A stretch of 64,000 bases of DNA from positions 768,561-832,560 of the forward strand of contig CAVZLN010000003.1 in assembly GCA_963776245.1 (NCBI GenBank), read 5' to 3'. The number at the start of each line of letters is the position of its first letter. Position 1 is the first letter of the stretch. Shown piece by piece: positions 3,001 to 61,904 of the stretch. This DNA is from Candidatus Eiseniibacteriota bacterium. Its GTDB lineage: Bacteria; Eisenbacteria; RBG-16-71-46. The position numbers and the translations under genes are program-made. The notes below the pieces were generated by a model, which was given only the letters and a program-made list of their open reading frames with translations, did no database searches and was not told where the DNA came from.

Positions 3001-6000
3001 CTGCCGATCGACTTCTCCGGCACGCACTACGTCTTCGTGCGCACCGACGCCGACGGGGCGGTCTACGAGTCGGACGAGAGCGACAACGTGTGGCGCGCTC
3101 CCTGGCCGCTCACCGTCACGCTCTCGGCGTGGCCCGACCTGCGAGTGACCGGCGGCGGCGTGGTCGTCGCCGCGCGGGCCGGCGAGGTGGTGCCGGTGTC
3201 GTGGACGGTGCAGAACCACGGCGTGGGCACGTCCGTGGGGCGCGGCTGGAGCGACATCGTCTACCTCTCGCCCAGTCCGACGTGGGGTGCGGGGCCCCTG
3301 CGTTCGCTGGGGGCATTCGGTAATCCCACCGGGCTGGCGCCGGGGGCGAGCTACACGCGCAACGCGAGCGTGGCGCTGCCCACCGACCTGTCGGGCACGC
3401 AGTACGCCTTCGTCGTCACCGATGGCTACGGTGCGGTGTTCGAGAACGGTTCCGAGTCGGACAACGTGCGCGGCCTCGGCGCCCCCGGCGACACCGGTGC
3501 CATCGGCGTCCCGGTCGCGATCACAGTGACAGCATATCCGCCGGTGGACCTGATCGTGACCGGCGTGACGGCACCCGACTCCGCGGCCTCGGGACGAAGC
3601 GTCTCGGTGACGTGGACGGTGTCCAACACCGGCAGCGGCACCACGCTCGCCGGCGGCTGGACCGAGAATGTCTATCTGTCGGCGGACACGCTGATCGACG
3701 GGAGCGATCTGCGCCTGGCTTCGGTGGGACACGGCGGCGCGCTCGGCGCCGGCGAGGGCTACGCGGCGCAGGCGAGCGGGACGCTGCCCAACGGCTTCAG
3801 CGGCACGTTCCACGCGCTGGTGCGGACCGACGCCTACGGGAACGTGGCGGATGCCAACACCGCGAACAACACGCGCCGGGCCCCCGGCACGATCGCGGTG
3901 CGGCTCACGCCGGCCCCGGATCTGGCGGCCACGTCCATCTCGACCGACGCGCAGGGCACCGCGGGCCAGCCGCTGACGGTGCGGTGGACCGTCGCGAACC
4001 AGGGCCCGGGCCCGATCGTGCCCGAGCGCTGGACGGCCGGCTGCTATCTGTCGTCGGACGCGGTGCTGGATGGCTCGGACGTCCTGCTCTCGAGCCTGGG
4101 GCACAGCGGGCCGTTCCTGTCCGCGACCACGGTGAGCGACACCGTGAGCGTGACGCTGCCGAGCTGGGCCTCGGGGCCGTTCTACCTGTTCGTGCGCGCC
4201 GACAACGACAACTCGGTGTACGAAGCGGGCGCGGAGGGGAACAACACCGCGCGCACCCAGCTCCAGGTCACGCTGTCCGCGCCCGCGAATCTGGTGGTGC
4301 GCGATGTCGTGATGCCGTCGGTCGCGATTCCGGGCGAGCCGGTGACGGTGTCGTGGACGCTCGCCAACATCGGGTCCAATCCGGCGGTGGGGCAGATCCA
4401 TTCGGCGGTGTACGTGTCGCCGGACCCGGTGTTCGACGTCAGCGATCCGGTGCTCGACATCGTGCCGACGACCATCAACCTCCCGCCGGGCACCACGCAG
4501 CACTTCTCCCGCGAGGTGAGCATGGAGCGGGCGTTCCGCGCCGACGCGCTCGGGAACCTCACCGCCGTCCTGCCCGGGGTCTCGCCGGGCGGCTACCACG
4601 GCATCGTGCGCGTGAACGTTCGCAACAGCGTGCGCGAGGAGACGCTGGCCGACAATGCGGGGGCGTCGGCGGACACCGTGCACGTGGAGGTGGCGGTGCT
4701 GGCGATCGGCGACTCGGCGCTGGCGACCCTGCAGGCCGGGCAGTCGCGCTACTACCGCATCGAGGCGCCGGCGGGCCAGGACCTCTCGGTCCAGCTCGAG
4801 ACCGAGTCGTCCGATGCCACCAACGAGCTGTTCGCCGCGTTCGGGCGGCCGCCCTCGCCGGGGTCGTTCGACTTCGCCGGGCCGGCGGAGTTCACCGCGC
4901 ACCCGTCGATCCTGGTCCCGAGCACGCAGGCCGGTCCGTACTACGTGCTGCTGACCGCGCGCGCGCTGCCATTCGGCGCGACGTCGGAGCTGGTCAAGCT
5001 GCGCGCGCGCGCGCTGCCGTTCTCGATCACGGCGGTGACGCCGGCACGGGGCGGTCAGGCGGCCTACGTGACCACCCGGATCGATGGCGCCGGGCTGCGC
5101 GACTCGACCCGGCTCTACCTGGTGGCCAACCGCGTGCGGGTGGCGCAGGCCGAGCGCGTGAAGTTCGAGAACACCACCGCGCTGCTGGCGCGCTGGGACC
5201 TGTCGGCGGTCCTGACGAACTCCTACGACGTGGAGGCGGAGGTGGGCGACAGCGTGTTCACCTTGAAGGGCGCCTTCACGGTCGAAAGGGCGACGACGCT
5301 CGAGGTGGTGACGACCGCGGTGAAGCCCGACGTGATCCGCCGCTCGGGAACGAATTCGTTCACCTTCCGTTTCCGCAATGCTTCCAATCGGGACCTGCCG
5401 GTCTTCCGCGGCCGGTTGCTCATCCCGGCCACCAGTACGCTGGTGAATATCGCCACCGACGATGGCCTGCGACGCCGCAGCGACCTGTTCCCGGAGCGCT
5501 TCACGCCGATCGAGGGGGACGTGGTCGCGATGACGGATACCAGCACCGGGTCCGCGGTGCGCGTGCTCGACCTGGTGGCGACCGAGATGGCCCCCGAGCG
5601 TGAGCTGTCGTGCACGGTCGTGCTCAAGGGCTTCGAGCAGAGCCCGTTCTCGATCCGCGCGCTGACCGAGACGATGGAGCTCTCGGCCTACCTGCAACGG
5701 GAGTTGACGCGGATCGAGGCGGCGCGTCGCAGCGTGCTCAGCGACCCGGCCGCCCACCCGGTCCCGATCGTGGGTCTCGCCTCGGATGCCGGGGCCTGGG
5801 CCGACACCGCCCTCCAGCGGGGGTACGTCGAGCGCGGGCTCGTGAGCGCGGCGGACGTGACGGCCTATGCCGCGGCCCACGGTGGCCTCGTGGGCGATGC
5901 CGGCGACGAACCGGCCGGTCCGGCGGACCTGCTCGCCGAGCGATCCGTCGGCGGATCGTGTGGGGCACCGGCGGGCGTGCCCGAGTGCCGCCCCGATGAG

Positions 6001-7302: not shown

Positions 7303-7330
7303 TGAGCGGCCAGGTCGCCTCGCGGTGTGG

Positions 7331-7354: not shown

Positions 7355-7365
7355 CCCCGCGCGGA

Positions 7366-7734: not shown

Positions 7735-8006
7735 CTTCCTCACCTCCCTTCGCCACCTCGGGGGCAGGGCGGAGCGCAATCTAGTGCGGCGCGCATAGCC
7801 GAGTCAACACTTCATCCGCTATCCATGCGGGTGGAAACGCTGTCGCCACTCCGTCATCCGGAGTGACGGGCCGGGTGCCGGAGCCGCGGGGGACGGGCCG
7901 CGCGCCACCGTCGCGGGCCGGGCAGCCCGCGGACTCGCGCCACCGGGCGTCGCGGCCGTCCCGCGTGACCACGACGGTGACAGTCCTTCGGGGCGTTCCG
8001 GATCCC

Positions 8007-8855: not shown

Positions 8856-8862
8856 GAGGTCC

Positions 8863-8919
8863 TGATATGCCGTGACTAGTGAATTTCACGATATATCGTG
8901 TCTAGCGATATACCGTGAA
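8863..8919. promoter_or_regulatory. AT-rich operator-like element: perfect 14-bp palindrome CACGATATATCGTG flanked by direct repeats GATAT(G/A)CCGTGA(C/A) and a CGTGA-N11-TCACG inverted repeat
   Basis: Read directly in the 170-bp intergenic region just 5-prime of the GAF/Fis regulator start (minus strand). This is a local AT-rich island in a ~70% GC background. Confidence 0.4.
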
Positions 8920-9025
8920 CAGCTTCCACGAGCCGCAGACCCAAGTCAAGGCCGATCCTGGGGCAGGTCGGGACGCCACGGCAGCGGGCTCAGCAAGGAA
9001 GTGCGACACCACCTCGCTGTCCGGC

Positions 9026-14418: not shown

Positions 14419-15012
14419 GTGATGCGAGACGACGACGCCCCGGGTGCCGACCGCCCCCTGATCGACGCGCTGATCGATCGCGGGGACGAGCAGGCCTTCC
14501 GCGAGCTGTACCGCCGGCACAATCCGGCGCTGTACCAGCTCCTGCTGCGCATGCTCGGTGGGGACGACCAGGACGCCGAGGACATCGCCCAGGAGACCTG
14601 GGTGCAGGCGGTCAAGAGCCTCGCGGGATTCCGCGGCTCGTCGAGCTTCCGCACGTGGCTCACGGCCATCGGCATCAACCGCTGCCGGAACCTGTTCCGC
14701 AGCCGCAAGCGGAAGAACACGGTGCCGTGGATCGAAGGCTGGGACCCGCCGGCGCCGGAGGTGCCGGTGGGAGCGCGCATCGACCTCGAGCGGGCGATCG
14801 CGCTGCTGCCCGATGGGTACCGGGCGGTGCTGGTGCTGCACGACGTGGAAGGGTACACGCACGAGGAGATCGCGGCCCGGCTGGGCATCAACGCGGGAAC
14901 GTCGAAGAGCCAGTTGTTCTGGGCTCGACGGGCGGTCCGGGGCCTGCTGGAACCGATGGCATCGAGGAGGGAGCGAGATCATGAACGACGAGCTGAACCC
15001 GAACGAGCGTGA
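14419..15012 (+). CDS. ECF (sigma-70 family, RpoE-like) RNA polymerase sigma factor
   Basis: Region 2 (…FRELYRRHNPALYQLLLRMLGGDDQDAEDIAQETWVQAVKSLAGF) and region 4 (LPDGYRAVLVLHDVEGYTHEEIAARLGINAGTSKSQLFWARRAV). The first codon is GTG, with an ATG at 14422. Confidence 0.8.
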   Translation: MMRDDDAPGADRPLIDALIDRGDEQAFRELYRRHNPALYQLLLRMLGGDDQDAEDIAQETWVQAVKSLAGFRGSSSFRTWLTAIGINRCRNLFRSRKRKNTVPWIEGWDPPAPEVPVGARIDLERAIALLPDGYRAVLVLHDVEGYTHEEIAARLGINAGTSKSQLFWARRAVRGLLEPMASRRERDHERRAEPERA

Positions 15013-15523: not shown

Positions 15524-15563
15524 GGCGGCACGGGCGATGGGACGAACGATGGAGAAGGACCGG

Positions 15564-16463
15564 ATGAACCTGCGGATGTCGATCGTGATCGGCGTGATCG
15601 TGACCCTGGCGGCGCTCGCGGCGTGGGCCGCGGCGCTCGGACTGACCGCGTGCGCCGCATGGGCGGGTGAGGCGCCGGCGCCCGGGCCGCGCGTGATGAC
15701 GAAGGTGCGCGTGGTCGCCCCCGCGGACCCCGGCGCGCCCGGGACGCCGCGCCTCGTCCGCGCCCCGCTGGCGCCGATGCCGGACGAGGTCTCGGCGCGC
15801 GGATGGTTCGGCATGCAGTTCACCTGCAGCGAGTGCACCATCGAGCCGCGCACCGCGAGCAAGGCCCCAGTGTGGACCTTCGCCGAGCCGCCCGAGGTCT
15901 ACCGCGTCGAGCCCGGTGGCCCCGCCGACAAGGGCGGCATGCTGCCCGGCGACGTGCTCACCCAGATCGACGGCCTGGCGCTCGACTCGGCCGAGGGCGG
16001 CCGGCGCTTCGGCGCCGTGGAGCCCGGGCAGAAGGTGCACTGGACGGTGCGCCGCGGCGGCGCGACGCGCGATCTCGCGGTGGTCGCGGGGGAGCGCCCC
16101 GGCCAGGGCCAGGTCCCGAGCCGCGAGGCCCAGCTGGCACGACTCAACGAGCAGCTCGTCCGCGCGCGCGAGATGCTCGTGCGCACGCGCGACCTCGAGG
16201 ACATGGGACAGATGCGCCAGGCGGTCGACCGGGCGCGCGCCCAGCTCGCGCAGCTCGAGTTCGAACGCGCGTTCCGCGCGCCGATGGCGTCGCGCACGCG
16301 CAACGCGGCGCAGCCGCTGCGCTACAGCGGCACCGTCGGCTGTTCGGACGTGGACGTTCGCGGCGTCGGCGCGGTGAACGTGACGGTGAGCCAGGAAGGC
16401 GACGAGATCGTGATCACCACCGGCGACGCGACGGTGCGGGTGAAGGCGGGCGCGAAGAAGTAG
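15564..16463 (+). CDS. Membrane-anchored PDZ-domain protein
   Basis: N-terminal TM (MNLRMSIVIGVIVTLAALAAWAAALGL) and a PDZ-like segment (…GGPADKGGMLPGDVLTQIDGLALDS…). SD GGAGAAGGA lies 5 nt before this ATG. The ORF track starts at 15537 on an upstream ATG. Confidence 0.65.
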   Translation: MNLRMSIVIGVIVTLAALAAWAAALGLTACAAWAGEAPAPGPRVMTKVRVVAPADPGAPGTPRLVRAPLAPMPDEVSARGWFGMQFTCSECTIEPRTASKAPVWTFAEPPEVYRVEPGGPADKGGMLPGDVLTQIDGLALDSAEGGRRFGAVEPGQKVHWTVRRGGATRDLAVVAGERPGQGQVPSREAQLARLNEQLVRAREMLVRTRDLEDMGQMRQAVDRARAQLAQLEFERAFRAPMASRTRNAAQPLRYSGTVGCSDVDVRGVGAVNVTVSQEGDEIVITTGDATVRVKAGAKK

Positions 16464-37891: not shown

Positions 37892-39860
37892 ATGAGTCGC
37901 CTCGCCCTGCTGCTCGCCGGCCTGCTGAGCGCGCTCCTGGTGGTGCAGGCCTCCGCCCGCACCGCGCCGAATCCCTCCGGCCGCGCGGTGCTCGACCCGG
38001 TCACCGGCCGTTCCCTCGATGCGGCCGGTCCGCTCGCCGCCTCCGGGCGCGCGGCCCCGGACGCGGCTCAGGCCGCCCTGTTCGTGAACGTGCCGTTGCC
38101 GGCGGGGGCCACGCTGCTGGACTCCACCTGGTACGACCTCCAGGACTTCGGTTCGCTCGGCACGCGCGTCGTGGTCCTGCCCGCCGGCGACGTGCACGTC
38201 GCCTACGAGAAGGACTTCTGCGAGATGGACGTGGCCGGGTGTCCGCCCGATCGCACCCGGGCGGTGCCCGATCCCTACCGGGGCATGGCCTACCGCCATC
38301 GCGACCCGCTGGGCGTGTGGACGAACTACGGCAAGGTCGCCGATCCCGATCTGCGCCAGGGCTGCTGCCCGACCGACCTGGTGGGCGGATTCGGCACCGT
38401 GGCGGTGACCCCCGCGGGCCGGGCCGTGGTGTCGCAGCACATGAAGGAGGACGGCTGCCCCGCCGTGCCGCGCGGCGACTTCTACCTGCAGGACGCCCCC
38501 GGCGCCTCGACCTGGACCGGCTACCTCACGCGCTACGACTCGCAGTACCAGTTCCCGCAGGTCTCGGTGAACCCGGACGGTTCCTTCACCCTGTTGGGCG
38601 AGGTGGTGCTCGCGGGCTCGTACGTCGAGACCAGCGCGATCGGCGTGAACTATTTCCCCGCGATCAAGATCGGCACGCTGTTCACCTGCCCCATCAACAC
38701 CCAGGGCGGGGCCTGGATCAGCATCATGCCGACCTCGCTCTTCCGCGATGGGCTGCCCGCCTTTCCGAGCATCGCGACCTCCACCAACGGGCGCGTCGGC
38801 GTGGCGGTCGGCGACTTCGGCGGCAACGTGTATCTGGTCGAGTCCTCGAACGGATCGTTCGCTCCGGGCACCATCACGATCCGCAATCTGACCAACACCA
38901 CGGACGCCCAGGTGACGGCGAGCGACTCGACCTCGACCCAGTACCGCTCGTACGTCAACTGCGCCATCGCCTACAACGACACCACGCCGAACGTGGTGTG
39001 GAGCGAGATCCAGGCGCGTCGCGTCGGGGGCGTGGTGACCTTCTTCGACTACCGCAGCCGCATCCGGCACTGGGACTCGATCCACGGCGCCAGCACCGTC
39101 AAGCAGGTGCAGCCCGGCGAAGCGGACCGCTTCGACGACGTGGACCAGGGCCTGTCGGGCCCTCTGCCCGGATTCAACACGCTGTCGGTGGACTGGCCCC
39201 AGGTGGGCTTCTCGCCGGACGGATCGGAGACCTACGTCACCTGGCTGCGCGCGAGCGACGCGGAGATCGACGCGACCGCGGACATGGGCCTGCCGGGCAT
39301 CGTGACGGGCGTCGGCCTTCATGGACATCGCCGCCAGCCTCCGCCTCGGCGGCGGCGCGTGGGGCCCGGCGCAGAACCTGACCGGCACGCCGACCACCGA
39401 CGAGCGGTTCCCGTCGCTGGCGGCGTGGAACCCCGGCGGCAAGGCACACGTGCTGTTCCAGGCCTCGGCCACCAACCAGGCGGGCAACGTGGTCATCGGT
39501 GACCGCGGCACCACGCCCGGCAACGTCCTGCGCCGCATCGCCTATCTCGAGAAGCCGCTGGCCGGCTCGACCGTGTCGGTCGAGGGCGGGCCCCCGGCGC
39601 ACGCGCCGGGCCTGCGGGTGTTCCCGAATCCCGCGCGCGGGCGCGTGACCTTCGCCTGGTCGGCGCCGGGCCCGGTCGCGCCGTTCGTGGACGTGTTCGC
39701 GGTGAACGGGCGCCGGGTGGCGCGCGTCGCCGTCACCGCCGGTCAGGCGGTGTGGGATGGCCGCGATGCCGAGGGACGTCCGGTCGCGACCGGCGTGTAC
39801 TGGGCGCGCACGACCGATGGAAGGGAGGAGGCCGGCAGTCGATTCCTCCTGTTGCACTGA
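37892..39860 (+). CDS. Secreted protein with a Por/T9SS-type C-terminal sorting domain, probably interrupted by a 1-nt frameshift near 39300 (the frame changes between ORF 37892..39502 and ORF 39321..39860)
   Basis: Signal peptide MSRLALLLAGLLSALLVVQASA. Coding bias runs in frame 2 up to ~39300, then in frame 0. The downstream piece carries only the sorting domain (…LRVFPNPARGRVTFAWS…VFAVNGRRVARV…GVYWARTTDG…RFLLLH) and has no N-terminal signal of its own. Confidence 0.55.
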
Positions 39861-50144: not shown

Positions 50145-52535
50145 GTGCCGGGATGTCTCATCTTGGAGACAGGACCGCATTGCCGACGCGGCGCCGCTCC
50201 CATAGACTATGAGCGCGATGTCGCAAGCCCGGAGGAGACCGGGGCAGCCCCCACGCTCCCAGGCCGTCCCCGCGTTCGCGGCCGCCGCAATCGTGGCCGT
50301 GGCGGGTTGCGGCGTGCTCGCTTTTCTGCCCCCCGACTCGCGCTCCACCCGCACGTGCTCTACCCGGACTCGCGCTATTGCGTCCCGGTGGACGCGCTCG
50401 CGCTGGCCCACCACGACATCGCCTTCGGTGACGGGCATCACGTGCTGCTCGGCCGGCTGCTCGACCGCCAGTTCAAGATCGTGTGGCAGGAGAACTACTT
50501 CACCCGGGACGTCGCGCCGAGCGCCGCGGTGGACGTGGACGGCGATGGCACCGAGGAGTTGTGCCTCTACGCCGGGGACTCCACCGCCGCGTCCGCGTGG
50601 GCGCTCGGTGCCGACGGGCGCGAGCGCCTGCGCATCGGGCTTTCGCGCGAGGCGGCGGCGCGCGCGGGCGTCACGTGGGATGGGAAGATCGCGATCGACG
50701 GCGTGCTCGAACGCGAAGGCCGCCGCCTGTTGGTGTGCCGGCTGACCGCGGGCTTCGCGGGGCACCCGCGCGGTGTGACGCTGATCGATGTCGCGACGCG
50801 GGCACGCGAGTGGACCTATGACATGGGGACGTTCCCGGTGCGCGCCGCGACCGCCGATGTCGACGGCGACGGTGCTTCCGAGGTGCTGGTGACCACCGGC
50901 TCGATCGACAATCACGTGTCGGCGAACGGCACCGACGACTCGCACGACTACGTGATCGCGATCGGCGCGGGGGGCGCGCGCGAGTGGCAGCTCGAGGTGG
51001 GCGGCCCGTTCGGGATCAGCCAGGCCGCGGTGCTGCCACCGGACGCCGAGAACACCGCGCCACGCGTGGTCGCGACCTTCTGCAGCCAGCGCGCGCGGCA
51101 GCCGGAGCCCGGGCGCCTCTTCCTGCTCGACGGCCGCACCGGCCGGGAGATCGATCGCCGCGAGTTCGAACAGGGCCTCGGGGTGCCGCGGCCGTTCGGC
51201 GCCGGCGACGGATTCGTGGTGGGCTCGCGGGACGGGATGCTGCGCGTGTTCGATCATGGCCTGCGCCTGGTGTGCCAGCGCAGCGTGGGCGAGGTGGTCG
51301 AGGCCTGGGGGTGCGCGGACGTCGACGGGGACGGCGAGCCCGAGATCGTGGCGTCCACGCAGGCGGAGGTGCTGGTGCTCGAGCGCGACCTGATGGTGCG
51401 CGCACGCATGCCGGTGACCGAACACGAGAACCCCGCCCCGGTCAGCCTCGCGAGCGCCGGCGTCGGGCATGCGCGCTTCGCGGTCTCCGACGGGCGGGCG
51501 ATCCTCGTGGACCCCGTCTTCCAGTCGCACCTCGAGGCCCCCGCGAGCGTCGCGCCGGTGCTCGGGCTCGCGCTCGCCACCGGCCTCGTGGTGCCGTTCG
51601 CGCGCCGCGCCCGGCGCCGCGCGCGCCGGCCGTCCGAGCCCGCGGTGCGCGAGTTCCTGCTCGACTACCACCAGATCCGCCACGAGACCTTCGAGCAGGA
51701 GCGTCCCTTCGCGCGGCTGCGCCTGTGGGCGCAGGCGCGCGCGGCCGGGCATCCGCTGCCCGCGGAGATGCTCGAGAGCGCGTGCGCCGAGTTCGAGCAC
51801 CTCGGGCTGCCGACGCTGGCCCGGTTCGCCGACCGCGCCGCGGCGATCCAGGTGGAGCGCGCGCGCGTGCGCAGCATCCGTGCGCGCGGGCGCGAGGTCG
51901 TTGCGGCGCTGCAGAAGGCGCGCGCCGCGGGCGACGCCGCGCGTATCGCCCGGGTGGTCGAGGCGCTGGCCGCCATCGACGCGCTGGCGCAGGACTGCTA
52001 CGAGGTCTACTGGGAGGTGGTGATGCGCGCGCCGTGCCGCGCCACCGTGGTGGCGGCCGAGGCGATGCTGGCCAAGGCCATCCTGCTCGAGCGCGGGACG
52101 ATCCGCACCCGCTACGATGCCGATCCGCACGCCCGGGAGCCCGTGCTGTTCGACCCGGACGAACTCCGCGCGCTGATCGGGGAGCTGGTCGAGAACTCCG
52201 CGCGGGCCCTGGTCGGATCGCCGGACGCGGCGCTCGAGGTCTCGGTCCGGGAGCATCCGGTCGATCCGCGCCGCGTCGTGATCTCGGTGAGCGACAACGG
52301 CCCCGGCCTCGCGCCGGACCAGCACGCGCGGCTCTTCACCCCCGAGGGCTCGACCCGGGAGGGGGGCGGCTTCGGGCTCTATCACGCGCGCGAGGTCGCG
52401 CGCCGCTGGCTCGCCGACCTCACGGTCGCGGACCCGCCGTCCGGACGCGGTCTCGCCGTGCAGCTGGTGGTGCTCGCATGTCGCGTGGTCGATCGCCGGG
52501 GCGGCGCGGCGGCCGGGAAGGAGCCGGGGGCATGA
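50145..52535 (+). CDS. Sensor kinase-like protein: FG-GAP/VCBS-like beta-propeller periplasmic domain, one TM segment, cytoplasmic HATPase_c domain without an obvious H-box. The N-terminus is probably affected by a frameshift (see findings)
   Basis: Repeats DVDGDGTEEL, DVDGDGASEV and DVDGDGEPEI. TM SVAPVLGLALATGLVVPF. G-boxes VSDNGPGL…GGFGLY. The ORF-track start is GTG 50145. Coding bias is in frame 1 from 50209 to ~50335 and in frame 0 after that. Confidence 0.6.
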   Translation: MPGCLILETGPHCRRGAAPIDYERDVASPEETGAAPTLPGRPRVRGRRNRGRGGLRRARFSAPRLALHPHVLYPDSRYCVPVDALALAHHDIAFGDGHHVLLGRLLDRQFKIVWQENYFTRDVAPSAAVDVDGDGTEELCLYAGDSTAASAWALGADGRERLRIGLSREAAARAGVTWDGKIAIDGVLEREGRRLLVCRLTAGFAGHPRGVTLIDVATRAREWTYDMGTFPVRAATADVDGDGASEVLVTTGSIDNHVSANGTDDSHDYVIAIGAGGAREWQLEVGGPFGISQAAVLPPDAENTAPRVVATFCSQRARQPEPGRLFLLDGRTGREIDRREFEQGLGVPRPFGAGDGFVVGSRDGMLRVFDHGLRLVCQRSVGEVVEAWGCADVDGDGEPEIVASTQAEVLVLERDLMVRARMPVTEHENPAPVSLASAGVGHARFAVSDGRAILVDPVFQSHLEAPASVAPVLGLALATGLVVPFARRARRRARRPSEPAVREFLLDYHQIRHETFEQERPFARLRLWAQARAAGHPLPAEMLESACAEFEHLGLPTLARFADRAAAIQVERARVRSIRARGREVVAALQKARAAGDAARIARVVEALAAIDALAQDCYEVYWEVVMRAPCRATVVAAEAMLAKAILLERGTIRTRYDADPHAREPVLFDPDELRALIGELVENSARALVGSPDAALEVSVREHPVDPRRVVISVSDNGPGLAPDQHARLFTPEGSTREGGGFGLYHAREVARRWLADLTVADPPSGRGLAVQLVVLACRVVDRRGGAAAGKEPGA

Positions 52536-53593
52536 AGCCACGGGTGCTGATCGTCGAGGACGACGCCGAGCGCGGACAGGTCGTGCACAGCGTATTGGCG
52601 ACCGACTGCGACTGCCACGTGGTCGGCACCGCGGAAGAGGCCTTCGCCGCCATCGGCCGCGCCGGCTGGGAGGCCGCGGTGGTGGACTACGACCTCGCCC
52701 GCGGCGGCAGCGGCCTGGAAGTCCTGCAGGCCCTGCGCGAGGCCTCGCCGGGCTCGCTGCGGGTGCTCTACACGGTGTACTTCACCGACAGCCTGATGCG
52801 CGACATCGACCGCCTCGCGCATCCGCACGCCATCGTGGACGCGCGTCCGGTGGACTTCCTCAACCGGCTGCGCGACGCGCTCGGCCAGTTGCTCGTGGTC
52901 GAGCCGGCGCACGCCGCGGCCGCGTCACCCGATCCGCACGGGCTGTGGTGCGGGGTGGCGCCCCCCACGGTGCGCTTCCTCGCCGACCTGAGATCCGCCG
53001 CTGAGAGCGACGCCGCGGTGTTCCTGGAGGGCGAACCGGGGGCGGGCTCGACGCAGGCCGCCAATCTGCTGCGCGAGTGGCGCGCGGCCTGGCGGTCGCG
53101 GACCGCCCGCACGGAGTGCGCCCTGCTGCCCGCCGTGATCCTGCGCGTGCCGCCCCTGCGCGAGCGGCGCCAGGACATCCCGGCGCTCGCGCGCCGCTAT
53201 CTGCTGGAGCACGCCCGCGCGACCGGCGAGCGGCCGCACGTGCTCGCGAACGAGGCGATCGAGGAACTGGCGCGGCGCGACTGGCGCGGCAATCTGCCGG
53301 AGCTGCACGGCGTGGTCACCCGCGCGTGCCTGAAGGCGGGCGCGCGCGCGCGGATCGGCGTCGGCGACCTGCCGCACGATCATCAGCCGGCGTGGCGCCC
53401 GTCGCAGTACGCGAAGGACGATGGCCAGCGCGAGTGCGTGCTGCGCCAATTGCGCACGGCCCGCAATGTGAGCGGCGCGGCGCGGCTCGAAGGCTGTTCG
53501 CGCGCGAACTACATCCGCATGATGCGGCGCCTCGGCGTGCTGCGCGCCGACGTCTCCGCCGACGTGGCGCTCGAGGGGGACGAGGAGGCGTAG
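52532..53593 (+). CDS. Response regulator with an N-terminal receiver, a degenerate/truncated sigma-54-interaction (AAA+) region and a Fis-type HTH
   Basis: REC: MKPRVLIVEDD…VVDYDL. Degenerate Walker A GEPGAGST, no GAFTGA motif, conserved C-terminal AAA segment …LPPLRERRQDIPALARRYL… HTH …RTARNVSGAARLEGCSRANYIRMMRRLGV. ATG overlaps the sensor stop (ATGA). Confidence 0.7.
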   Translation: MKPRVLIVEDDAERGQVVHSVLATDCDCHVVGTAEEAFAAIGRAGWEAAVVDYDLARGGSGLEVLQALREASPGSLRVLYTVYFTDSLMRDIDRLAHPHAIVDARPVDFLNRLRDALGQLLVVEPAHAAAASPDPHGLWCGVAPPTVRFLADLRSAAESDAAVFLEGEPGAGSTQAANLLREWRAAWRSRTARTECALLPAVILRVPPLRERRQDIPALARRYLLEHARATGERPHVLANEAIEELARRDWRGNLPELHGVVTRACLKAGARARIGVGDLPHDHQPAWRPSQYAKDDGQRECVLRQLRTARNVSGAARLEGCSRANYIRMMRRLGVLRADVSADVALEGDEEA

Positions 53594-55641: not shown

Positions 55642-55723
55642 CCCGCGGCACGGCGTGCTCGAGCCCCGTCGCCCGCGAGGGCGGCGGGGCTTTGCCACGG
55701 GTGGACGCGGGCGCACCCCGCGC

Positions 55724-56425
55724 TCAGGGCAGGCGCAGGATCCCCAGATCGGTCCGCGCGATGCGGGCCTCCCCGCGGAGCGCCGCGACCCTCCAGAGCA
55801 GCGTGTCCCCGGAGGCGGCGCCGGCCACGGCGCCGGGCGCCAGCACGAGGACGGTCTCTCGCGCCGTCCCCAGGACGGCCAGCGCGCGCAGCTCAGGAGA
55901 ATACAGGCGCACCTCGTAGCGATCGGCCCCTTGGACGGCGCGCCAGCGCAGCTCGACGCGGCCGCCCGCGCGTGTCGTCGGCGCCATCCGCACCATCCCG
56001 CTGTCGGGGCCACCGCTCGCCTGCCCGCGCAGGACGCCGCTGGCGTGCTCCAGCCCGCCCGGACGCTGCACCAGGAGCACCCCCGCCACCACCAGCGCCG
56101 CCGCCGCGAACGCGACCGCGGGTGCGCCGAACCAGCCCCACGGTCCTCGCGTCCGCGCGCGCTCGTGGCGCACGCGTCCCGGGTCCAGCACGTGGCCGGT
56201 CGCGTCGTCCGGCGCGACCTCGCGGGCGAGGAACTCGGCCAGCCGGTCTTCGGCATCGCGCAGCTCGGCGGCTGGAAGGTGCGCGGGCGGCGCGATGAAC
56301 TGCTGGTGGCGCACGTGCAGCGTGCGGCAGCGCGGGCACGCGTCCAGGTGGCGGCGCCGCGGGTCGTCCTCCGGCAGCCGCGATGCCGCGGCGATCTCGG
56401 CCAGGGTGAGATGGCGGCCGCTCAT
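55724..56425 (-). CDS. Zinc-binding (ZAS-type, HxxxCxxC) single-pass anti-sigma factor with a periplasmic C-terminal domain
   Basis: N-terminus MSGRHLTLAEIAAASRLPEDDPRRRHLDACPRCRTLHV. TM WFGAPAVAFAAAALVVAGVLLV. The ATG overlaps the stop of the ECF sigma gene (ATGA). The 109 upstream codons in the ORF track are rejected. Confidence 0.65.
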   Translation of the reverse strand: MSGRHLTLAEIAAASRLPEDDPRRRHLDACPRCRTLHVRHQQFIAPPAHLPAAELRDAEDRLAEFLAREVAPDDATGHVLDPGRVRHERARTRGPWGWFGAPAVAFAAAALVVAGVLLVQRPGGLEHASGVLRGQASGGPDSGMVRMAPTTRAGGRVELRWRAVQGADRYEVRLYSPELRALAVLGTARETVLVLAPGAVAGAASGDTLLWRVAALRGEARIARTDLGILRLP

Positions 56426-57039
56426 GGGGAGCCTCGCGTCTCGTCGGCGGCCCGCGCGGCCCATGCCGCGCGCATCTTCCGCCGCGCGGTCTGGAGCAGT
56501 CCGCGCGCGCCCGAGACCGTGGCGATACCCAGCGTGCGCGTGATGTCGTCCACCGAGGCCTCCTCCACATGGCGTAGCCAGAGTGCGTCCTGCTCCTGCG
56601 GCGTCAGCGTCTCGCTCATGACTCGCAGGAGGTCCTCGTGGGCCCGGCGCCGTTCGAACCGCGCGTCGGGACCGGCGCCCGGGTCCACGACCCGCTCGAC
56701 GACGGCGCCCTCGTCGCGCACCAGCCGCCGCGGCCGCATCGCGCGGATGCACTGCCGGCGCGCGATCACGAACAACCAGGCCGAGAAGGGAGCGCGGGAC
56801 TCGAAGCCCGCGAGGGCGCGGTAAGCGATCATGAGCACTTCCTGTGACAGGTCCAGCGCGCGCTCGTGGTCACGCACGTAGCGTCGGCACCATCCGTACA
56901 CCCGCCCCCGATAGCGCCCCAGCAGCCACGACGCGGCGCGGCGGCCCGCGGGCCCATGCGGGTCCTGCCGGGCACATCGTGCCAGCTCGTCGTCGGGGAT
57001 CGCAGGGTCGTCCCGAGTCATGCGTACGGAGGCTCCCAT
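56422..57039 (-). CDS. ECF RNA polymerase sigma factor
   Basis: Region 2 …DLSQEVLMIAYRALAGFESRAPFSAWLFVIARR… and region 4 …LTPQEQDALWLRHVEEASVDDITRTLGIATVSGARGLLQTARRKM… An alternative ATG lies at 57021. Confidence 0.8.
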   Translation of the reverse strand: MGASVRMTRDDPAIPDDELARCARQDPHGPAGRRAASWLLGRYRGRVYGWCRRYVRDHERALDLSQEVLMIAYRALAGFESRAPFSAWLFVIARRQCIRAMRPRRLVRDEGAVVERVVDPGAGPDARFERRRAHEDLLRVMSETLTPQEQDALWLRHVEEASVDDITRTLGIATVSGARGLLQTARRKMRAAWAARAADETRGSP

Positions 57040-57049
57040 GGGGCGGGAA

Positions 57050-59935
57050 TCACACCCCGCGTCGCGCCGGCGCGGCGCGCTTCGCGTGGCGGCTCCACCC
57101 CCAGCCTACGCCCAGCAGTGCGAGCGCCGCAGCCATGGATGCGAGCGCCCCGCCGACCGGGAAGCGGCGCTCGAGCGCGACCCGCGCGTCCCCGTCGCCG
57201 ATCAGCAGGTAGCCAGCCCAGTAGAACGGAGACGCGGTCGCGGATCGGTGCGCGACCCGCAACTGCGCGTGACGCAGCGCGTGCGCCACGGTCTCGCCGC
57301 GGGCGAGGCCGGCATAGAAGTCCTTCATGAGTGTCGCCGCGACCTGGTCGTCCACCGGCCACAGCGCCACCACCACCGTGCGCACGCCGGCGCTCAGGAA
57401 GGCGGTCCCCAGTCCCTGGATGCCCTCGCCCCAGGCGATCCGCCCGCCACCCGATTCGCAGCCCGAGAGCACCGCCAGCCTCGCAGGCAGCCGCATCGCG
57501 GCGATCGCGTTCGCGCGCAGCCAGGGGTCCGCGCCCATCACCGCCGAGTCGGGGCCCGCGGTCGCGCTCCCGGCGGCGGCCGCGCCCGGCTCCCCGACCG
57601 GCCCGAGCAGCACGCCGGAGTTCCAGGGGCGTTGGTCGTCCACCATCGTGTGCGCGGCGAGGTGGAGCACCTGATAGCGCCCCAGCTCCCGGGCGCTCAG
57701 CGGGGGCACCGGCCCGGCGCCGAAGACGCGCACGTCGGAGCCGGCGAATCCGCGACCGAGCGCGCGCACCTCGGCCACCGCGCCGGCCAGCCGGCGGCCG
57801 CGGAAGTCGGTCGCCCCGCCGAGCGCCAGCAACGCGCGCTCGGTCGGCACGAGCGCGCGCGCCCGCGACCCGGCGAGCAACGTCGCCGAGGGCACGCGGA
57901 TCACCTCGCGGTGCTCGAGGAGCGCCGACTCCTCGGCCGCGCCCCCGGGCGCGAGCGGCAGCTCGCCGAACGCGATCCCATTGAGCGGGCCGTCCGGCGC
58001 CACGATCACCCGGTGACTGCTCGCCACCAGGTCCGCCACTCCCCCGAGCAGCCGCTCACTCAGGCTGCGCGCGGCGCGACGCCGCACCGCCTCCAGCGCG
58101 GCGTCGCGCGGTTCCGCGGGGGGGGTGGCCACGATCTCCCGATAGAGCTGCACCGCCATGGCCAGCGAGTCCGCCGCGGGCAGGTGCACGACACGGACTC
58201 CGCGGGCCGTGATGGCGAACAGCCACGCGTCCTCGCGGCCCACGAACGCGTCGAGCAACAGCTGGCCCTCGTCGAGCACGCGACCCTGCAGCTCGCGCAG
58301 GGTCACCGGAGGGCGCGGCTCCGGGAGCGCGCCGGCGGGACCCGCCATGCGCTCGAGCAGCGTGCGCGCCTTGAACTGTTGCAGCACGTCGTAGGCGCCG
58401 GCCACGGCGACCGAGTCCGGCACGCCGGCACGCGGCGGGAGCAGCGCGCGCCCGAGCGCGAAGCAGAGCTCCTCCGCCAGTTCGCCGCGGCGTACCCGCC
58501 ACGCCGGGTCCGTGGGCACCCTGCGCTCGGTCTCCCACAGGCGCTCGGCCCGCCGCAGCACGCTCCGCGCGCTGTCCGCGCGGCCGAGGTCCCAGTCGCA
58601 CCGGCCCGCCCCGGTGAGCGCGTCGAGACGGGCGCCCGCGAGTCCCGAAGCGAGCGCGGAGCGCTCCGCGCGCGCGAAGGACGCGTGCGCTTGCTCGGTC
58701 CGGCCGAGCGCGCGCAGCAGGTGCCCGGTCTGCAGGTCGAGCCGGACGCGCGACTCGACCGAGAGACGCGCGCGCAGCGGCGCGGCCTCGCGCGTCAGCA
58801 CCGCGAGCCCCTCGGATCCGCGGCCCAGCGCGCCGTGCGCGGAGGAGATCCGGAGCACGGCCTCGAAACGGTACTCCGGCTCGAGGCCGCCGCGCAGGGC
58901 GAGGCAGCGCCGCAGGATCCGGATGGACTCCTCGTGCCGTCCCTGGGTACCGCGGATGGAGGCGAGCTGGAGCAGCGTGTGGATCTGCCCGCCCGGATGG
59001 TCCTGCTCCACGTCCAGCGCGAGCAATTCCTCCAGTCGGCGCGCCGCCTCGTCGAAGTGACCGAGATCGGCCTCGGCGATGGCCACGTTGGCGGCCGAGC
59101 GCTGCATCTCGTCGATGGCTCCGAGCTGCCGGTAGATGCCGACCGCCTGCTGCCACTGGCGCACGGCCTGCGCTGGATCGCCGACCTGGTACTCGAGCGT
59201 GCCGAGGTTGTTGATGGCATCGGCCTGCTGCATGCGGGCATCGAGGCGCCCGGCGAGGCGCACGATCGCCTCGTAGCTCCGCCGCGCCTCCGCGAACTCG
59301 CCCAGCGCCCCGTGGGCGCGCGCGAGCCCGACCATCGGAGTGAGCGCGGCACGTTCATCGCCCGCTCGCCGCAGGCATTCCACCGCCCTGCGGTAGCCGT
59401 CCCGGGAGGCCGCGAGGCGCCCCGCCGCCAGGTCGCCATAGGCGAGCGCGGTGCGCGCGAAGCCTTCGTTGCGCGCGTCGCGGGCGGGCACCGCGAGCGC
59501 GAGCAGGCGCGTGTAGAGCCGCGTTGCTTCGTCGGGTCGCATGCGGGCCAGGTAGGAGTACGCCAGCCAGCGCAACGCCGTGCGCAGCACCGAGGAATCT
59601 CCAAGGGCCGCGGCCAGCTCCATCGCCGGGCGCGCCGCCGCCTCGGACTGCGCGGCGCGGCCGGTGAGTCCCAGGCCGGCGGCCCGGCGCAGCTGGACCT
59701 CCATGGTCAGATTGCGGTCGCCGCGGCGGCGGGCCTGCGCGAGCAGCGGTTCGAGCACCACCAGCGCGGAGTCCGCCCGCCAGTTCCTCGCCAGCGAGTC
59801 CGCCCGCTGGAGGATCGCGACCGCCCGGGGATCGGCCGGCGTCCGCGCGCGCGCGGTCGCCGTCGGGAGCAATGCCAGCAGGGCCGCGAGCGCCAGCGGC
59901 AGGTGTGCTCCGGGTCGCCGGGCTCGAGGTCTCAA
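57050..59935 (-). CDS. Secreted TPR-repeat protein with a C-terminal CHAT (caspase-like HetF-associated) protease domain and a C-terminal membrane anchor
   Basis: Signal peptide MRPRARRPGAHLPLALAALLALLPTATARA (TTG start). Multiple TPR-like units (…A..YS.L...G….A….A…). CHAT region with a His…Cys dyad (…YQVLHLAAHTMVDDQ… …RLAVLSGCESGGG…). C-terminal TM GGALASMAAALALLGVGWGW. It ends 10 nt before the ECF sigma start. Confidence 0.8.
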   Translation of the reverse strand: MRPRARRPGAHLPLALAALLALLPTATARARTPADPRAVAILQRADSLARNWRADSALVVLEPLLAQARRRGDRNLTMEVQLRRAAGLGLTGRAAQSEAAARPAMELAAALGDSSVLRTALRWLAYSYLARMRPDEATRLYTRLLALAVPARDARNEGFARTALAYGDLAAGRLAASRDGYRRAVECLRRAGDERAALTPMVGLARAHGALGEFAEARRSYEAIVRLAGRLDARMQQADAINNLGTLEYQVGDPAQAVRQWQQAVGIYRQLGAIDEMQRSAANVAIAEADLGHFDEAARRLEELLALDVEQDHPGGQIHTLLQLASIRGTQGRHEESIRILRRCLALRGGLEPEYRFEAVLRISSAHGALGRGSEGLAVLTREAAPLRARLSVESRVRLDLQTGHLLRALGRTEQAHASFARAERSALASGLAGARLDALTGAGRCDWDLGRADSARSVLRRAERLWETERRVPTDPAWRVRRGELAEELCFALGRALLPPRAGVPDSVAVAGAYDVLQQFKARTLLERMAGPAGALPEPRPPVTLRELQGRVLDEGQLLLDAFVGREDAWLFAITARGVRVVHLPAADSLAMAVQLYREIVATPPAEPRDAALEAVRRRAARSLSERLLGGVADLVASSHRVIVAPDGPLNGIAFGELPLAPGGAAEESALLEHREVIRVPSATLLAGSRARALVPTERALLALGGATDFRGRRLAGAVAEVRALGRGFAGSDVRVFGAGPVPPLSARELGRYQVLHLAAHTMVDDQRPWNSGVLLGPVGEPGAAAAGSATAGPDSAVMGADPWLRANAIAAMRLPARLAVLSGCESGGGRIAWGEGIQGLGTAFLSAGVRTVVVALWPVDDQVAATLMKDFYAGLARGETVAHALRHAQLRVAHRSATASPFYWAGYLLIGDGDARVALERRFPVGGALASMAAALALLGVGWGWSRHAKRAAPARRGV

Positions 59936-60239
59936 GGCTCGTCCATGGCGGCACCGTGGCGAGGCGGGATGCGCGCGCCGGTGCCTGCCGGGCTGCGGGG
60001 GCCATCGTCCGGGCTCGGGAGCGGCGCGTCAAGGTCCGGGGGTGGCCCGCCGCGCTGGGATGGCCCCTGGTCCCGCGAGACGCCGTGTGATTCGCCGGTG
60101 GATCCTGCCTCTGTGGATGCGTCGACCATGCCGCTTCCCCCCGCACAGCCGGGGGGCGGTGGCTCCAGCACCGGCGGGCGCGCCCATGGCGGGCCCGGCC
60201 AGCCGAGCACCTCGAGACGCCGCCCCAGCGGGAGAGACC

Positions 60240-61904
60240 ATGACGATCGGAAAGACCACCCTGCTCATCCTCGCCACGATCCTCGCCGCTGGCACCGCGC
60301 GCGCCAACGTCCAGCAGGACTGGGCGACTCGCTTCGGGACGGCCGGATCCAGCGGGGCCGCGGTCGCGGTCGATCCGGCCGGAAACGTGTACGTGGCCGC
60401 GAACATCTTCCGGGGCGTCCGGGGGTTCGACCTCCTGACCATCAAGTACGATGCGGCCGGGACCCAGCTGTGGTCGCGCGAGTTCAACGGGATCGGCAAC
60501 GGCCTCGAGTACCCGGTGGGGATCGCCATCACCAGCGCCGGGAGCATCGTCGTCACGGGCACGAGCTTCCGCGGGCCCACGGCGCTCAATTACGAGATCG
60601 TCACGATGGCCTACGCTCCCAACGGCGACTCGCTCTGGCTGGCACGCTACAATGGGGTCTCGGCCAAGGACGATCGTCCACTGGCCCTGGCGGTGGACGC
60701 GAGCGGCAACACCTACGTCGCCGGCTACTCCAACGGCAACTCGGTGAGTTCCTGGGACGGACGCGACTACGTCACCATCAAGTACGGGCCCACCGGCGCG
60801 CAATCGTGGGCGGCGACCTACCCCCTGGTGTGGTGTTCCGGGGCGAACGCTCTGGCCGTGGACGCGCGCGGAAACGTGTACGTGACCGGTGGGGGCTACG
60901 ACGGCAATCCCACCTTCGGCGACTACCTGACGATCAAGTACAGCACGCTGGGCGCACCGCTCTGGGTGGCCCGCTATGCCGGCGCGGACGACGATGAGGC
61001 GAAGGCGATCGCCGTGGACGGCAGCGGCAACGTGTGCGTGACCGGCAGGGGCCAGCAGGTCTCGGGCTACGCCGACATCACCACCATCCAGTACGACTCC
61101 GCCGGGGTCGAGCGGTGGGTGAAGCGCTACGACGGCGTGGCGCACAGCGATGACGGGGGTCTCGGCATCGGGATCGACATGGCCCACAACATCTACGTCA
61201 CCGGGTCGGAGACGAACGCCAATGCCTTCAACAACCGGGACATCGTGACCCTGAAGTACTCGACCACCGGGGACTCGCTCTGGTGCAAGCACTACGACGG
61301 CCCGTCGGCTTCCTACGACGATCCGCTCTCGATCTGGGTCGATGGTGCCGGGAACTCGATCGTGCTGGGCCGCAGTTACGGCCCCGGGGTGACCCCGTTC
61401 ACGAGCTACTACGGCTTCCTGACGATGGGATACGGCTCGGGCGGCGATCCGCTGTGGCTGGTGCGCTACGACGGTCCGGGGGACGGGGACGAGTACGCGG
61501 GCGGCCTCGCGGTGGGTGTCGACGGGAGCATCGTCGTGGCGGGCGGCAGCATCGACTACCTGTCGGGCAATGGGTACGTCGCCACGGTCAGGTACTCGGG
61601 CGCGACGCTGGATGTCGCCGCGGGCCCACGGCCGCGCCCGGAGCCCGCGCGGCTCTCGTGGAGCCACCCCAATCCCTGCGCGCAGGCAGCCACCATCCAG
61701 TTCCGCCTGGCGTCCGCCGCGCCAGTCTCGCTCCGGGTCTACGACCTGCAGGGACGCGAAGTGGCCGCGCTCGCCGACGGCGTGCGACCGGCCGGCGAGC
61801 ACGCGGTCCGCTGGGACGCTTCCAGCGCGCCCGACGGGGTGTACTTCTACCGACTGCGGATCGGGGCGCGCGAGGAGACGAGGAGGATGGTGGTCGTCCG
61901 CTGA
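60240..61904 (+). CDS. Secreted beta-propeller (SBBP-type) repeat protein with a Por/T9SS-type C-terminal sorting domain
   Basis: Signal peptide MTIGKTTLLILATILAAGTARA. About 8 repeats …AVD.SGNVYVTG…DY.TIKY…G…W..RY… C-terminus …LSWSHPNPCAQAATIQFRL…VSLRVYDLQGREVA…DGVYFYRLRIGAREETRRMVVVR. ATG verified. The 220 upstream codons in the ORF track are shadow. Confidence 0.75.
   Translation: MTIGKTTLLILATILAAGTARANVQQDWATRFGTAGSSGAAVAVDPAGNVYVAANIFRGVRGFDLLTIKYDAAGTQLWSREFNGIGNGLEYPVGIAITSAGSIVVTGTSFRGPTALNYEIVTMAYAPNGDSLWLARYNGVSAKDDRPLALAVDASGNTYVAGYSNGNSVSSWDGRDYVTIKYGPTGAQSWAATYPLVWCSGANALAVDARGNVYVTGGGYDGNPTFGDYLTIKYSTLGAPLWVARYAGADDDEAKAIAVDGSGNVCVTGRGQQVSGYADITTIQYDSAGVERWVKRYDGVAHSDDGGLGIGIDMAHNIYVTGSETNANAFNNRDIVTLKYSTTGDSLWCKHYDGPSASYDDPLSIWVDGAGNSIVLGRSYGPGVTPFTSYYGFLTMGYGSGGDPLWLVRYDGPGDGDEYAGGLAVGVDGSIVVAGGSIDYLSGNGYVATVRYSGATLDVAAGPRPRPEPARLSWSHPNPCAQAATIQFRLASAAPVSLRVYDLQGREVAALADGVRPAGEHAVRWDASSAPDGVYFYRLRIGAREETRRMVVVR

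Follow-up and report, generated by a model that had tools for sequence, protein, structure and literature searches.

A conserved TPR-CHAT, ECF sigma factor and anti-sigma factor module from a Candidatus Eiseniibacteriota bacterium, with a candidate site for proteolytic sigma release

Introduction

A stretch of 64,000 nucleotides from a Candidatus Eiseniibacteriota bacterium (contig CAVZLN010000003.1, positions 768,561 to 832,560; hereafter the window, ~73% G+C) encodes, between positions 55,724 and 59,935, a TPR-CHAT protein, a sigma factor of the extracytoplasmic function (ECF) type and a single-pass anti-sigma factor. The three genes were described in an earlier note on this DNA as co-directional, and all three open reading frames (ORFs) are present on the minus strand at the coordinates that it gave (Table 1). 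The locus raises the question of whether an exported CHAT protease releases the sigma factor by cutting the anti-sigma factor.

Canonical regulated intramembrane proteolysis (RIP) of anti-sigma factors is exemplified by DegS/RseP acting on RseA, PrsW/RasP on RsiW, and Prc or CtpA with FecR-like proteins. The type III-E Craspase, made up of Cas7-11/gRAMP, the TPR-CHAT protein Csx29, Csx30/Csx31 and RpoE, is cytoplasmic and is activated by RNA through Cas7-11. Craspase had been put forward in the earlier note as the only analogy, which it is not, as DdvA/DdvS of Myxococcus xanthus is a closer precedent (PMC11506125). DdvA, the only characterised anti-sigma factor with a periplasmic TPR-CHAT part, is a single-pass zinc-binding anti-sigma (ZAS) protein with a ~900-residue periplasmic TPR-CHAT region that carries a His/Cys dyad (PMC11506125; PMC6061681; PDB 8ROT/8RW5). 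This dyad is turned towards the partner protomer's flexible juxtamembrane linker, and signal-induced CHAT cleavage in trans has been proposed by the DdvA authors as the site-1 step before RseP (PMC11506125). This cleavage could not be demonstrated by them, as the signal is unknown (PMC11506125), and in DdvA enzyme and substrate are one chain.

Results

Conservation of the trio

Relatives of the TPR-CHAT protein were collected from one genome per GTDB species, which gave 80 loci with ~62 full CHAT-family members. These come from metagenome-assembled genomes (MAGs) labelled Ca. Eisenbacteria, Krumholzibacteriia/-ota or Latescibacterota, many of which carry 2-3 copies. When an iterated sigma model was used, an ECF sigma gene was found on the same strand within 2.5 kb of the CHAT gene at 49 of the 62 family loci; 5 of the other 13 are cut by contig ends, and synteny among informative loci is 49/57 (~86%). 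At 38 non-redundant loci, a sigma/anti-sigma pair of the window type, in which the anti-sigma has an FN3 domain, adjoins the CHAT gene on the same strand, as detected with hidden Markov models (HMMs) from the window sigma and anti-sigma. Two gene orders were seen, CHAT-sigma-anti-sigma and sigma-anti-sigma-CHAT, and the order tracks the CHAT tree in a clade-coherent way. The CHAT gene lies 3' of the sigma and anti-sigma genes in at least 14 FN3-type loci and in an alternative clade described below. The trio is kept in the closest CHAT relatives at 83%, 64% (Ca. Eisenbacteria), 37% and 31% identity, the last two having the order sigma-anti-sigma-CHAT, and at locus L003 stop and start codons overlap across all three genes. 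The link is also seen when the search starts from anti-sigma homologues: in 3 of 3 contigs the sigma gene is closely preceded by a CHAT C-terminus. The conserved triad of CHAT, ECF sigma and ZAS genes proposed in the earlier note was thus recovered in most informative relatives, in two orders and from both directions of search.

Pairwise distances are correlated for CHAT and sigma (r = 0.74), CHAT and anti-sigma (r = 0.63) and sigma and anti-sigma (r = 0.65), values that are consistent with co-inheritance and cannot tell physical interaction from linkage. One CHAT clade (L023, L045, L042, L047, L060, L063, L028, L029 and L053) is accompanied by another ECF sigma and by a zf-HC2 anti-sigma with a weakly DUF4384-like outer domain. 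The idea of an 'orphan' CHAT clade was rejected, as the sigma HMM, built from 4 sequences, had been too narrow and Pfam together with the iterated HMM find a different sigma. At locus L020 (5307-5885, plus strand), 5' of the CHAT gene, an ORF resembling an anti-sigma domain (ASD) and an ORF with a transmembrane (TM) helix, VLRG and FN3 are split by a stop codon, and no sigma gene was detected; the locus has the look of a module copy in decay, whereas its sister locus L018 is intact. The module is real, conserved and unannotated. That its three genes form a conserved functional unit is supported by these data, and the CHAT protein can be regarded with good confidence as a functional partner of the sigma/anti-sigma pair.

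The TPR-CHAT protein

The TPR-CHAT protein consists of a predicted N-terminal export signal, ~11 TPR-like helix pairs, a caspase-like CHAT domain and a C-terminal TM anchor. Pfam agreed with the TPR repeats and CHAT domain assigned from the sequence, the CHAT match covering the full profile and TPR_12 scoring 68.6 bits, with matches to several further TPR models. Residues H758, H762 and C826 are invariant in a six-sequence alignment of close homologues and are kept in 56 of the 57 members of the family alignment, exceptions being truncated ORFs, so the His/Cys dyad claimed earlier stands. Such invariance argues for a selected catalytic activity of CHAT. In the AlphaFold2 (AF2) model, both H762 and C826 are placed just after strands, which is the clan CD arrangement. 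Structural matches of this model include DdvA, which is the top Foldseek match in the PDB, separase and Csx29; a PDB sequence search returned generic TPR proteins only, and DdvA and Csx29 emerge by fold alone.

A hydrophobic segment at residues ~10-28, after which ATA↓R follows, could plausibly act as a Sec signal, and most CHAT family members have an N-terminal segment of this kind. The C-terminal TM helix is followed by a basic tail of 14 residues, SRHAKRAAPARRGV. Of the signal peptide and membrane anchor described in the earlier note, the hydrophobic segments at both ends were found, their assignment being a matter of hydropathy only; the topology was read from hydropathy in combination with the positive-inside rule and from a fusion protein that occurs naturally at locus L009. 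No ASD was found in the CHAT protein, as the ASD model (asd.hmm) matches only the 233-residue protein encoded by the third gene.

The anti-sigma factor

The 233-residue protein has the HxxxCxxC motif and the single TM helix of a ZAS-type anti-sigma factor, as had been claimed, with H5 as a possible fourth zinc ligand. Because of its gene position and motif, it would be expected to bind zinc and to inhibit its sigma factor. The motif is kept in 119 of 146 diverse members. Pfam and NCBIfam gave no significant match (zf-HC2 E = 0.2-0.5, even when each homologue was scanned), and a PDB sequence search found nothing. The AF2 model comprises a confident N-terminal helical domain (helices 8-70, with a predicted local distance difference test score (pLDDT) of 80-94), a disordered region at 74-142 and a confident C-terminal beta-sandwich, for which all top-50 Foldseek matches in the PDB are FN3-type domains. 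In a set of 1.84 billion representatives, an anti-sigma profile matched 461 clusters of the same architecture at E ≤ 1e-30, and almost all of these are 215-250 residues long and matched over their full length. At weak E-values the counts are swollen by giant FN3-repeat proteins that are not anti-sigmas (P0192, P0203, P0209, P0211, P0239 and P0328; 1.9-6.8 k residues), each with 20-39 profile matches to the FN3 part only.

A linker motif and a natural fusion

Three observations bear on whether the CHAT protein and the anti-sigma factor meet. The outer juxtamembrane linker of the anti-sigma contains the sequence L132-R133-G134, which is at least 90% conserved among 13 close homologues, where neighbouring positions vary. 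Among 146 diverse representatives, the V, L, R and G of the motif are 50, 80, 90 and 70% conserved, against 10-30% for the surrounding linker, and the conservation of R133 equals that of the zinc ligands. The motif lies 8-20 residues past the TM helix and ~26-30 residues ahead of the first FN3 strand. Of the 48 anti-sigmas of the family, 22 contain LRG (1.5 expected from shuffles) and 36 contain LR followed by a small residue (7 expected), an enrichment that is inflated by the relatedness of the sequences. The unrelated DUF4384-type anti-sigmas have SPLVLRG at the same place after the TM helix. In the AF2 model the linker is disordered, as expected of a protease substrate, and in this it is comparable to the linker of DdvA, which is turned towards the other protomer's dyad (PMC11506125). 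Separase, metacaspases and gingipain R cut after Arg, and by analogy a disordered, membrane-proximal Arg motif fits the site of a clan CD enzyme. Separase, which is also built of TPR-like and CHAT/caspase-like parts, cuts after Arg in an unstructured motif (PMC11506125).

The second observation is a fusion protein at locus L009 (Latescibacterota chromosome CP070763.1; P0073/UCE01811.1; 5893-9174, plus strand), in which a CHAT domain is followed by a TM helix, a short basic loop, a second TM helix, a linker with ILRG and an FN3 domain. As an ASD must be cytoplasmic, the FN3 domain is extracytoplasmic, and CHAT, which is separated from FN3 by two helices, then comes to lie on that side as well. 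The fusion, being the only such case seen and from a MAG, is no more than supportive; its relative P0074 (88% identical, 878 residues) covers just 79% of it, MAFFT misplaced anti-sigma fragments on alignments of the fusion, and it has neither an ASD nor a sigma. For the window, the CHAT protein and the outer domain of the anti-sigma are likewise predicted to occupy the same compartment. Given the fusion and the VLRG motif, cleavage of the anti-sigma by CHAT appears to be the best reading of the locus.

The third observation is a different arrangement at three distant Chloroflexia/Herpetosiphon loci (L070, L075 and L081, ~4000-9200), where a TPR-CHAT gene whose product has no signal or TM segment is convergent with genes for an ECF sigma and a soluble HxxxCxxC protein, the latter containing QPALRGE at L075 and L081. 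No CRISPR genes were seen in these 13-kb loci. They look like a wholly cytoplasmic CHAT/sigma/anti-sigma trio, and with both CHAT and the ZAS protein lacking membrane segments, the compartments of the partners co-vary.

The sigma factor and its candidate promoters

The sigma factor matches Sigma70_r2 with 60.6 bits (cut-off 24) and TIGR02937 with 71.1 bits (cut-off 42.9), whereas its region 4_2 scores 19.8 bits, under the cut-off of 25.7. Its nearest solved relatives are of the AlgU/SigE types and not DdvS. The sigma stop codon and the anti-sigma start codon overlap as ATGA, as reported before. The 10-nt gap between the CHAT gene and the sigma gene is right for the annotated start, but the true start is probably ATG 57021 (Met7), because a promoter-like motif overlaps the annotated start and homologue lengths agree with the shorter form. 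The sigma factor is possibly translated from a leaderless mRNA.

That motif, TGTGATTC-N14-CCTCC, shares bases with the CHAT stop codon (GTG TGA); a second copy stands ahead of the divergent gene at 60240..61904. The consensus TGTGATTY-N14-CSTCY has exactly 2 matches on both strands of the 64 kb and 0 in 100 shuffles, and the orthologous loci L084 and L001 have kept the block at 60086..60112. This conserved intergenic block was also considered as a minus-strand promoter of the CHAT gene and rejected, as it is the plus-strand promoter of the neighbouring gene. Elsewhere in the family, the bipartite motif TGTGATTC-N14/15-CGTC is common to regions 5' of genes that follow the module. Of the 38 FN3-type loci scanned, 12 had the motif just 5' of sigma, at least 12 had it at the CHAT stop or 5' of the gene that comes next, and none had it 5' of CHAT. 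Unbiased enumeration of bipartite k-mers on the upstream regions was swamped by GC-rich noise. A scan of positions 55400-60400 found no sigma-70 promoters or intrinsic terminators.

From the position of the motif we infer that the module sigma reads TGTGATTC-N14-C(C/G)TC promoters. In the simplest reading, it autoregulates itself and the anti-sigma and drives the neighbouring secreted cargo. A single sigma-controlled operon of all three genes is improbable, since a sigma-type promoter lies between CHAT and sigma and none lies 5' of CHAT. The absence of the motif 5' of CHAT makes CHAT look like an input and not an output, and the simplest reading of the gene order in the window is that CHAT is expressed independently, as expected of an input component.

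The cargo gene encodes an SBBP beta-propeller protein with a C-terminal sorting domain of the type IX secretion system (T9SS) and is a probable regulon target. Large proteins (0.9-2.1 k residues) ending in FlgD_ig/Por_Secre_tail adjoin the module in ~25 of 62 loci, compared with a density of such C-terminal domain (CTD) proteins of ~1 per 20 kb elsewhere in the flanks. Their passengers vary (FG-GAP, CARDB/PMP, DUF5122 and SBBP), and an equivalent motif often stands 5' of cargo genes in other loci too. In the alternative clade, a classic TGAAAC-N18-CGTTT element stands downstream, ahead of a 1,620-residue CARDB/FlgD_ig cargo. Two more ORFs in the window, 1..7299 (plus strand; 2,433 residues, running off the window start) and 39306..39857 (plus strand), match a T9SS C-terminal-domain HMM, so such cargo genes are frequent in the genome.

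Discussion

A proposed mechanism

The domain identities, the dyad, the synteny, the predicted topology with both partners in one compartment, the fusion, the motif in the linker and the placement of the promoter motif together suggest the following course of events. The exported TPR-CHAT protein, a clan CD, caspase/separase-like cysteine protease, would be tethered to the inner membrane by its C-terminal helix, with its TPR sensor and active site facing the periplasm. The ECF sigma would be held at the membrane by the cytoplasmic zinc-finger domain (HxxxCxxC) of the single-pass anti-sigma, which would expose a disordered outer linker with V-L-R-G and, at its end, an FN3 domain. CHAT would be activated by a signal that the TPR and/or FN3 part binds, and as a site-1 protease it would cut the linker in trans, most likely after Arg133 (VLR↓G). 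The remaining stub would be removed by a site-2 protease and cytoplasmic proteases, and the freed sigma, acting at TGTGATTC-N14-C(C/G)TC promoters in front of the sigma/anti-sigma pair and the T9SS beta-propeller gene, would amplify its own expression and switch on the secreted cargo. The mechanism suggested in the earlier note has gained support from the fusion, from the motif in the linker and from where the promoters lie, and it is still one that we infer. For the full model, with CHAT cleavage of the anti-sigma at VLR↓G, we estimate a probability of roughly 0.5.

Relation to known systems

The module is a split version of the DdvA/DdvS-type proposal and not a departure from all known schemes. 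As in DdvA/DdvS, a single-pass anti-sigma whose cytoplasmic part is an HxxxCxxC zinc domain holds, or here would hold, an ECF sigma, a TPR-CHAT part with an intact His/Cys dyad that is periplasmic (here by prediction) adjoins the ECF sigma, and CHAT is proposed to act in trans as the site-1 protease before RseP, cutting a juxtamembrane linker that is long and flexible. H762/C826 would be the counterparts here of the DdvA dyad, H862/C907. In DdvA the CHAT part is fused N-terminally to the anti-sigma, whereas in the window it is a separate gene product with its own C-terminal helix anchor, and the window anti-sigma has its own FN3 domain and conserved VLRG motif. The window sigma is not DdvS-like, and the apparent regulon is the sigma itself and the T9SS cargo, not CBASS/CRISPR. 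The fused DdvA architecture has been reported in Myxococcota and one Comamonas species only (PMC11506125), whereas the split module occurs in candidate phyla of the Fibrobacteres-Chlorobi-Bacteroidetes (FCB) group, in several copies per genome.

Craspase shares with the window a TPR-CHAT protease that is genetically linked to an ECF sigma and a sigma-sequestering protein, and proteolysis that releases the sigma, which for the window is proposed. The differences lie in what accompanies the protease and in where it acts. As had been noted before, gRAMP and a CRISPR array are missing: no array was found in the 64-kb window and no PADLOC match for the module or its neighbour, four module proteins and six neighbours having been profiled. 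Unlike Csx29, the window CHAT is predicted to be exported and membrane-anchored, and its candidate substrate is a classical transmembrane ZAS anti-sigma. The earlier note had further supposed that the mechanism would differ from site-1/site-2 cascades; most likely it feeds into the site-2 step and does not replace it. As proposed here, it would resemble canonical RIP in that a single-pass anti-sigma is first cut outside near the membrane, which opens the way for a site-2 protease and for the release of an autoregulated ECF sigma. The site-1 enzyme would differ: instead of a serine or metallo housekeeping protease, it would be a cysteine protease of clan CD, dedicated, encoded alongside and equipped with a TPR sensor, and the predicted P1 residue in the anti-sigma is Arg. 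Separase, although similar in build, is eukaryotic, cytoplasmic or nuclear, regulated by securin and Cdk, and has no sigma-factor link. No description of a split CHAT, sigma and anti-sigma module was found in the part of the literature that was covered, and CHAT is not mentioned in the main text of the ECF classification of Casas-Pastor 2021.

Alternative explanations

Several observations weigh against cleavage at VLR↓G followed by sigma release. When a chimera of the window CHAT protein and anti-sigma was modelled with AF2, it folded well, yet the LRG linker had a pLDDT of ~32 and no confident docking was obtained, and the motif counts come from related sequences. Autoproteolysis of DdvA was not observed, and its dyad mutants were wild-type-like in unstimulated cells (PMC11506125). 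About 8 family loci with adequate flanks have no adjacent same-strand sigma, so CHAT can exist without the pair. The -35 part of the motif (TGTGATTC) differs from the classic GGAAC, and its reading by the module sigma is based on position and on general ECF autoregulation. In loci of the order sigma-anti-sigma-CHAT, the sigma promoter comes before the CHAT gene, which in these cases could itself be an output.

This last arrangement invites the view that CHAT is an output of the sigma regulon, the anti-sigma sensing alone through FN3 and the sigma inducing a periplasmic protease for stress or defence. ECF regulons often take in neighbouring genes, and in the loci with CHAT 3' of the sigma and anti-sigma genes (at least 14 of FN3 type and the alternative clade) all lie on the same strand, with codons sometimes overlapping. 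In the window and in other loci of the order CHAT-sigma-anti-sigma, however, the sigma-type promoter comes after CHAT, none precedes CHAT in any of the 38 loci, and the fusion and linker motif indicate direct contact with the anti-sigma, which makes an output role very unlikely. A contact of another kind would be made if the TPR-CHAT protein were a co-sensor or shield (RseB-like, or a co-anti-sigma) that binds the FN3 domain or linker while a Prc/CtpA- or DegS-type protease cuts VLRG, CHAT catalysis serving another purpose or autoprocessing. The bulky TPR-CHAT part of DdvA sterically blocks RseP (PMC11506125), TPR and FN3 are protein-binding modules, and both the DdvA dyad mutants and the missing docking of the linker in the active site would fit. 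Against such a shield stand the selected catalysis implied by the dyad and the co-occurrence of the VLRG motif with CHAT even where the type of anti-sigma differs, and it is judged quite unlikely.

The substrate may also be sought elsewhere, with CHAT linked to the module but cutting the T9SS cargo or another periplasmic protein, and FN3 sensing the product, the cargo or its CTD; the earlier note had likewise allowed for 'a substrate it senses'. The large CTD proteins of varied passengers next to ~25 of 62 modules favour this, as do loci of the order sigma-anti-sigma-CHAT-cargo, where CHAT directly precedes the cargo and the promoter lies at the CHAT stop. A cargo substrate would leave unexplained both the Arg motif in a disordered linker across two unrelated outer domains and the CHAT-linker-FN3 fusion, and many loci, several with the window's gene order among them, have no adjacent cargo; we hold it to be unlikely. 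Finally, the module could be a phage-defence regulator like DdvA/DdvS, since this closest characterised system controls a CBASS/CRISPR island (PMC11506125). Such a role is highly improbable here: the PADLOC and CRISPR searches were negative, the neighbours are metabolic genes and one T9SS cargo, the promoter motif marks the cargo gene, and the sigma sequence is not DdvS-like. Cleavage of the anti-sigma by CHAT at VLR↓G is retained as the preferred reading, at the probability given above.

Wider meaning

As the split module puts enzyme and substrate on two proteins, with a sharply conserved candidate site at VLR↓G, the question left by DdvA becomes directly testable. If the proposal is true, the few site-1 enzymes listed for trans-envelope signalling in bacteria are joined by a caspase/separase-like cysteine protease, and ECF signalling would be tied, by a promoter motif that can be read, to single cargo genes of type IX secretion. 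The module also offers a first functional handle on hundreds of unannotated anti-sigmas of uncultured Eisenbacteria, Krumholzibacteria and Latescibacteria. On the strength of the hundreds of anti-sigma clusters at 50% identity, the several paralogous modules per genome and the cytoplasmic Chloroflexia trios, it may be suggested, tentatively and at less than even odds, that split trans-acting TPR-CHAT proteins are widespread dedicated site-1 proteases with an Arg-P1 site, each switching on its own T9SS surface protein in FCB-group phyla. CHAT cleavage of a sigma-sequestering protein would then be an old general principle, with Craspase and DdvA as specialised offshoots.

Coordinates and other features of the window

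Table 1. Positions of the module, its parts, the candidate promoters and cargo genes. Coordinates are those of the window, or of the locus where one is named.
Feature	Coordinates	Strand	Basis or remark
TPR-CHAT protein, 961 aa	57050..59935	-	TTG start; Pfam CHAT E = 1e-51, TPR_12 E = 6e-19; AF2 pLDDT 84
Predicted signal peptide/signal anchor, residues 1-29, MRPRARRPGAHLPLALAALLALLPTATA↓R	59849..59935	-	hydropathy and sequence
TPR superhelix, residues ~36-470	58526..59830	-	Pfam TPR models; AF2 helix pairs H36-H469, pLDDT mostly >90
CHAT domain, residues 620-914	57194..58078	-	Pfam PF12770, 176.5 bits, cut-off 24, profile positions 2-289 of 289
H762 codon, putative catalytic His (LHLAAHT)	57650..57652	-	just after strand 754-760 (AF2); codon checked
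C826 codon, putative catalytic Cys (LSGCES)	57458..57460	-	just after strand 820-824 (AF2)
C-terminal TM helix, residues 925-947	57095..57163	-	hydropathy; AF2 helix 927-949; family-conserved
ECF sigma, 205 aa as annotated (199 aa if start 57021)	56422..57039	-	Pfam and NCBIfam matches
Single-pass anti-sigma, 233 aa: ZAS domain, TM, disordered linker, FN3	55724..56425	-	homologue alignment, AF2
HLDACPRC zinc-binding (ZAS) motif, residues 26-33	56327..56350	-	H26, C30, C33 at least 90% conserved
Anti-sigma TM helix, residues ~97-122	56060..56137	-	hydropathy maximum 2.5
L132-R133-G134, candidate CHAT cleavage/recognition site in outer juxtamembrane linker	56024..56032	-	conserved motif
Predicted extracytoplasmic FN3-fold domain, residues 145-233	55727..55993	-	AF2 pLDDT >90
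ECF-type promoter candidate TGTGATTC-N14-CCTCC	57028..57054	-	overlaps CHAT stop (GTG TGA), ends 6 nt 5' of ATG 57021
Second promoter-motif copy TGTGATTC-N14-CCTCT	60086..60112	+	128 nt 5' of divergent cargo gene
SBBP beta-propeller protein with T9SS C-terminal sorting domain	60240..61904	+	Pfam SBBP E = 1e-17, Por_Secre_tail E = 2.6e-6, FlgD_ig E = 2.8e-6
CTD cargo genes at other loci	L003 5779-8835; L014 8668-12861; L023 8459-13345; L030 8825-13828; L044 2357-5953; others
Alternative sigma/anti-sigma clade, examples	L023 3982-5578; L045 4268-5768

Two further regulatory regions lie in the window. The first, at 50145..53593 (plus strand) and only a few kb away, encodes a sensor histidine kinase with FG-GAP repeats and, after it, a response regulator whose sigma-54-activator/AAA-lid domain is partial; no link to the module was seen for this pair. 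At 14419..15012 (plus strand), a second, unrelated ECF sigma is encoded (Sigma70_r2 E = 8e-18, r4_2 E = 6e-16), and 3' of it lie an ORF without assignment and then a PDZ-domain protein, the further coordinates of this region being 15537..16463 (plus strand). The region may be a separate module of the sigma/anti-sigma/PDZ-protease type.

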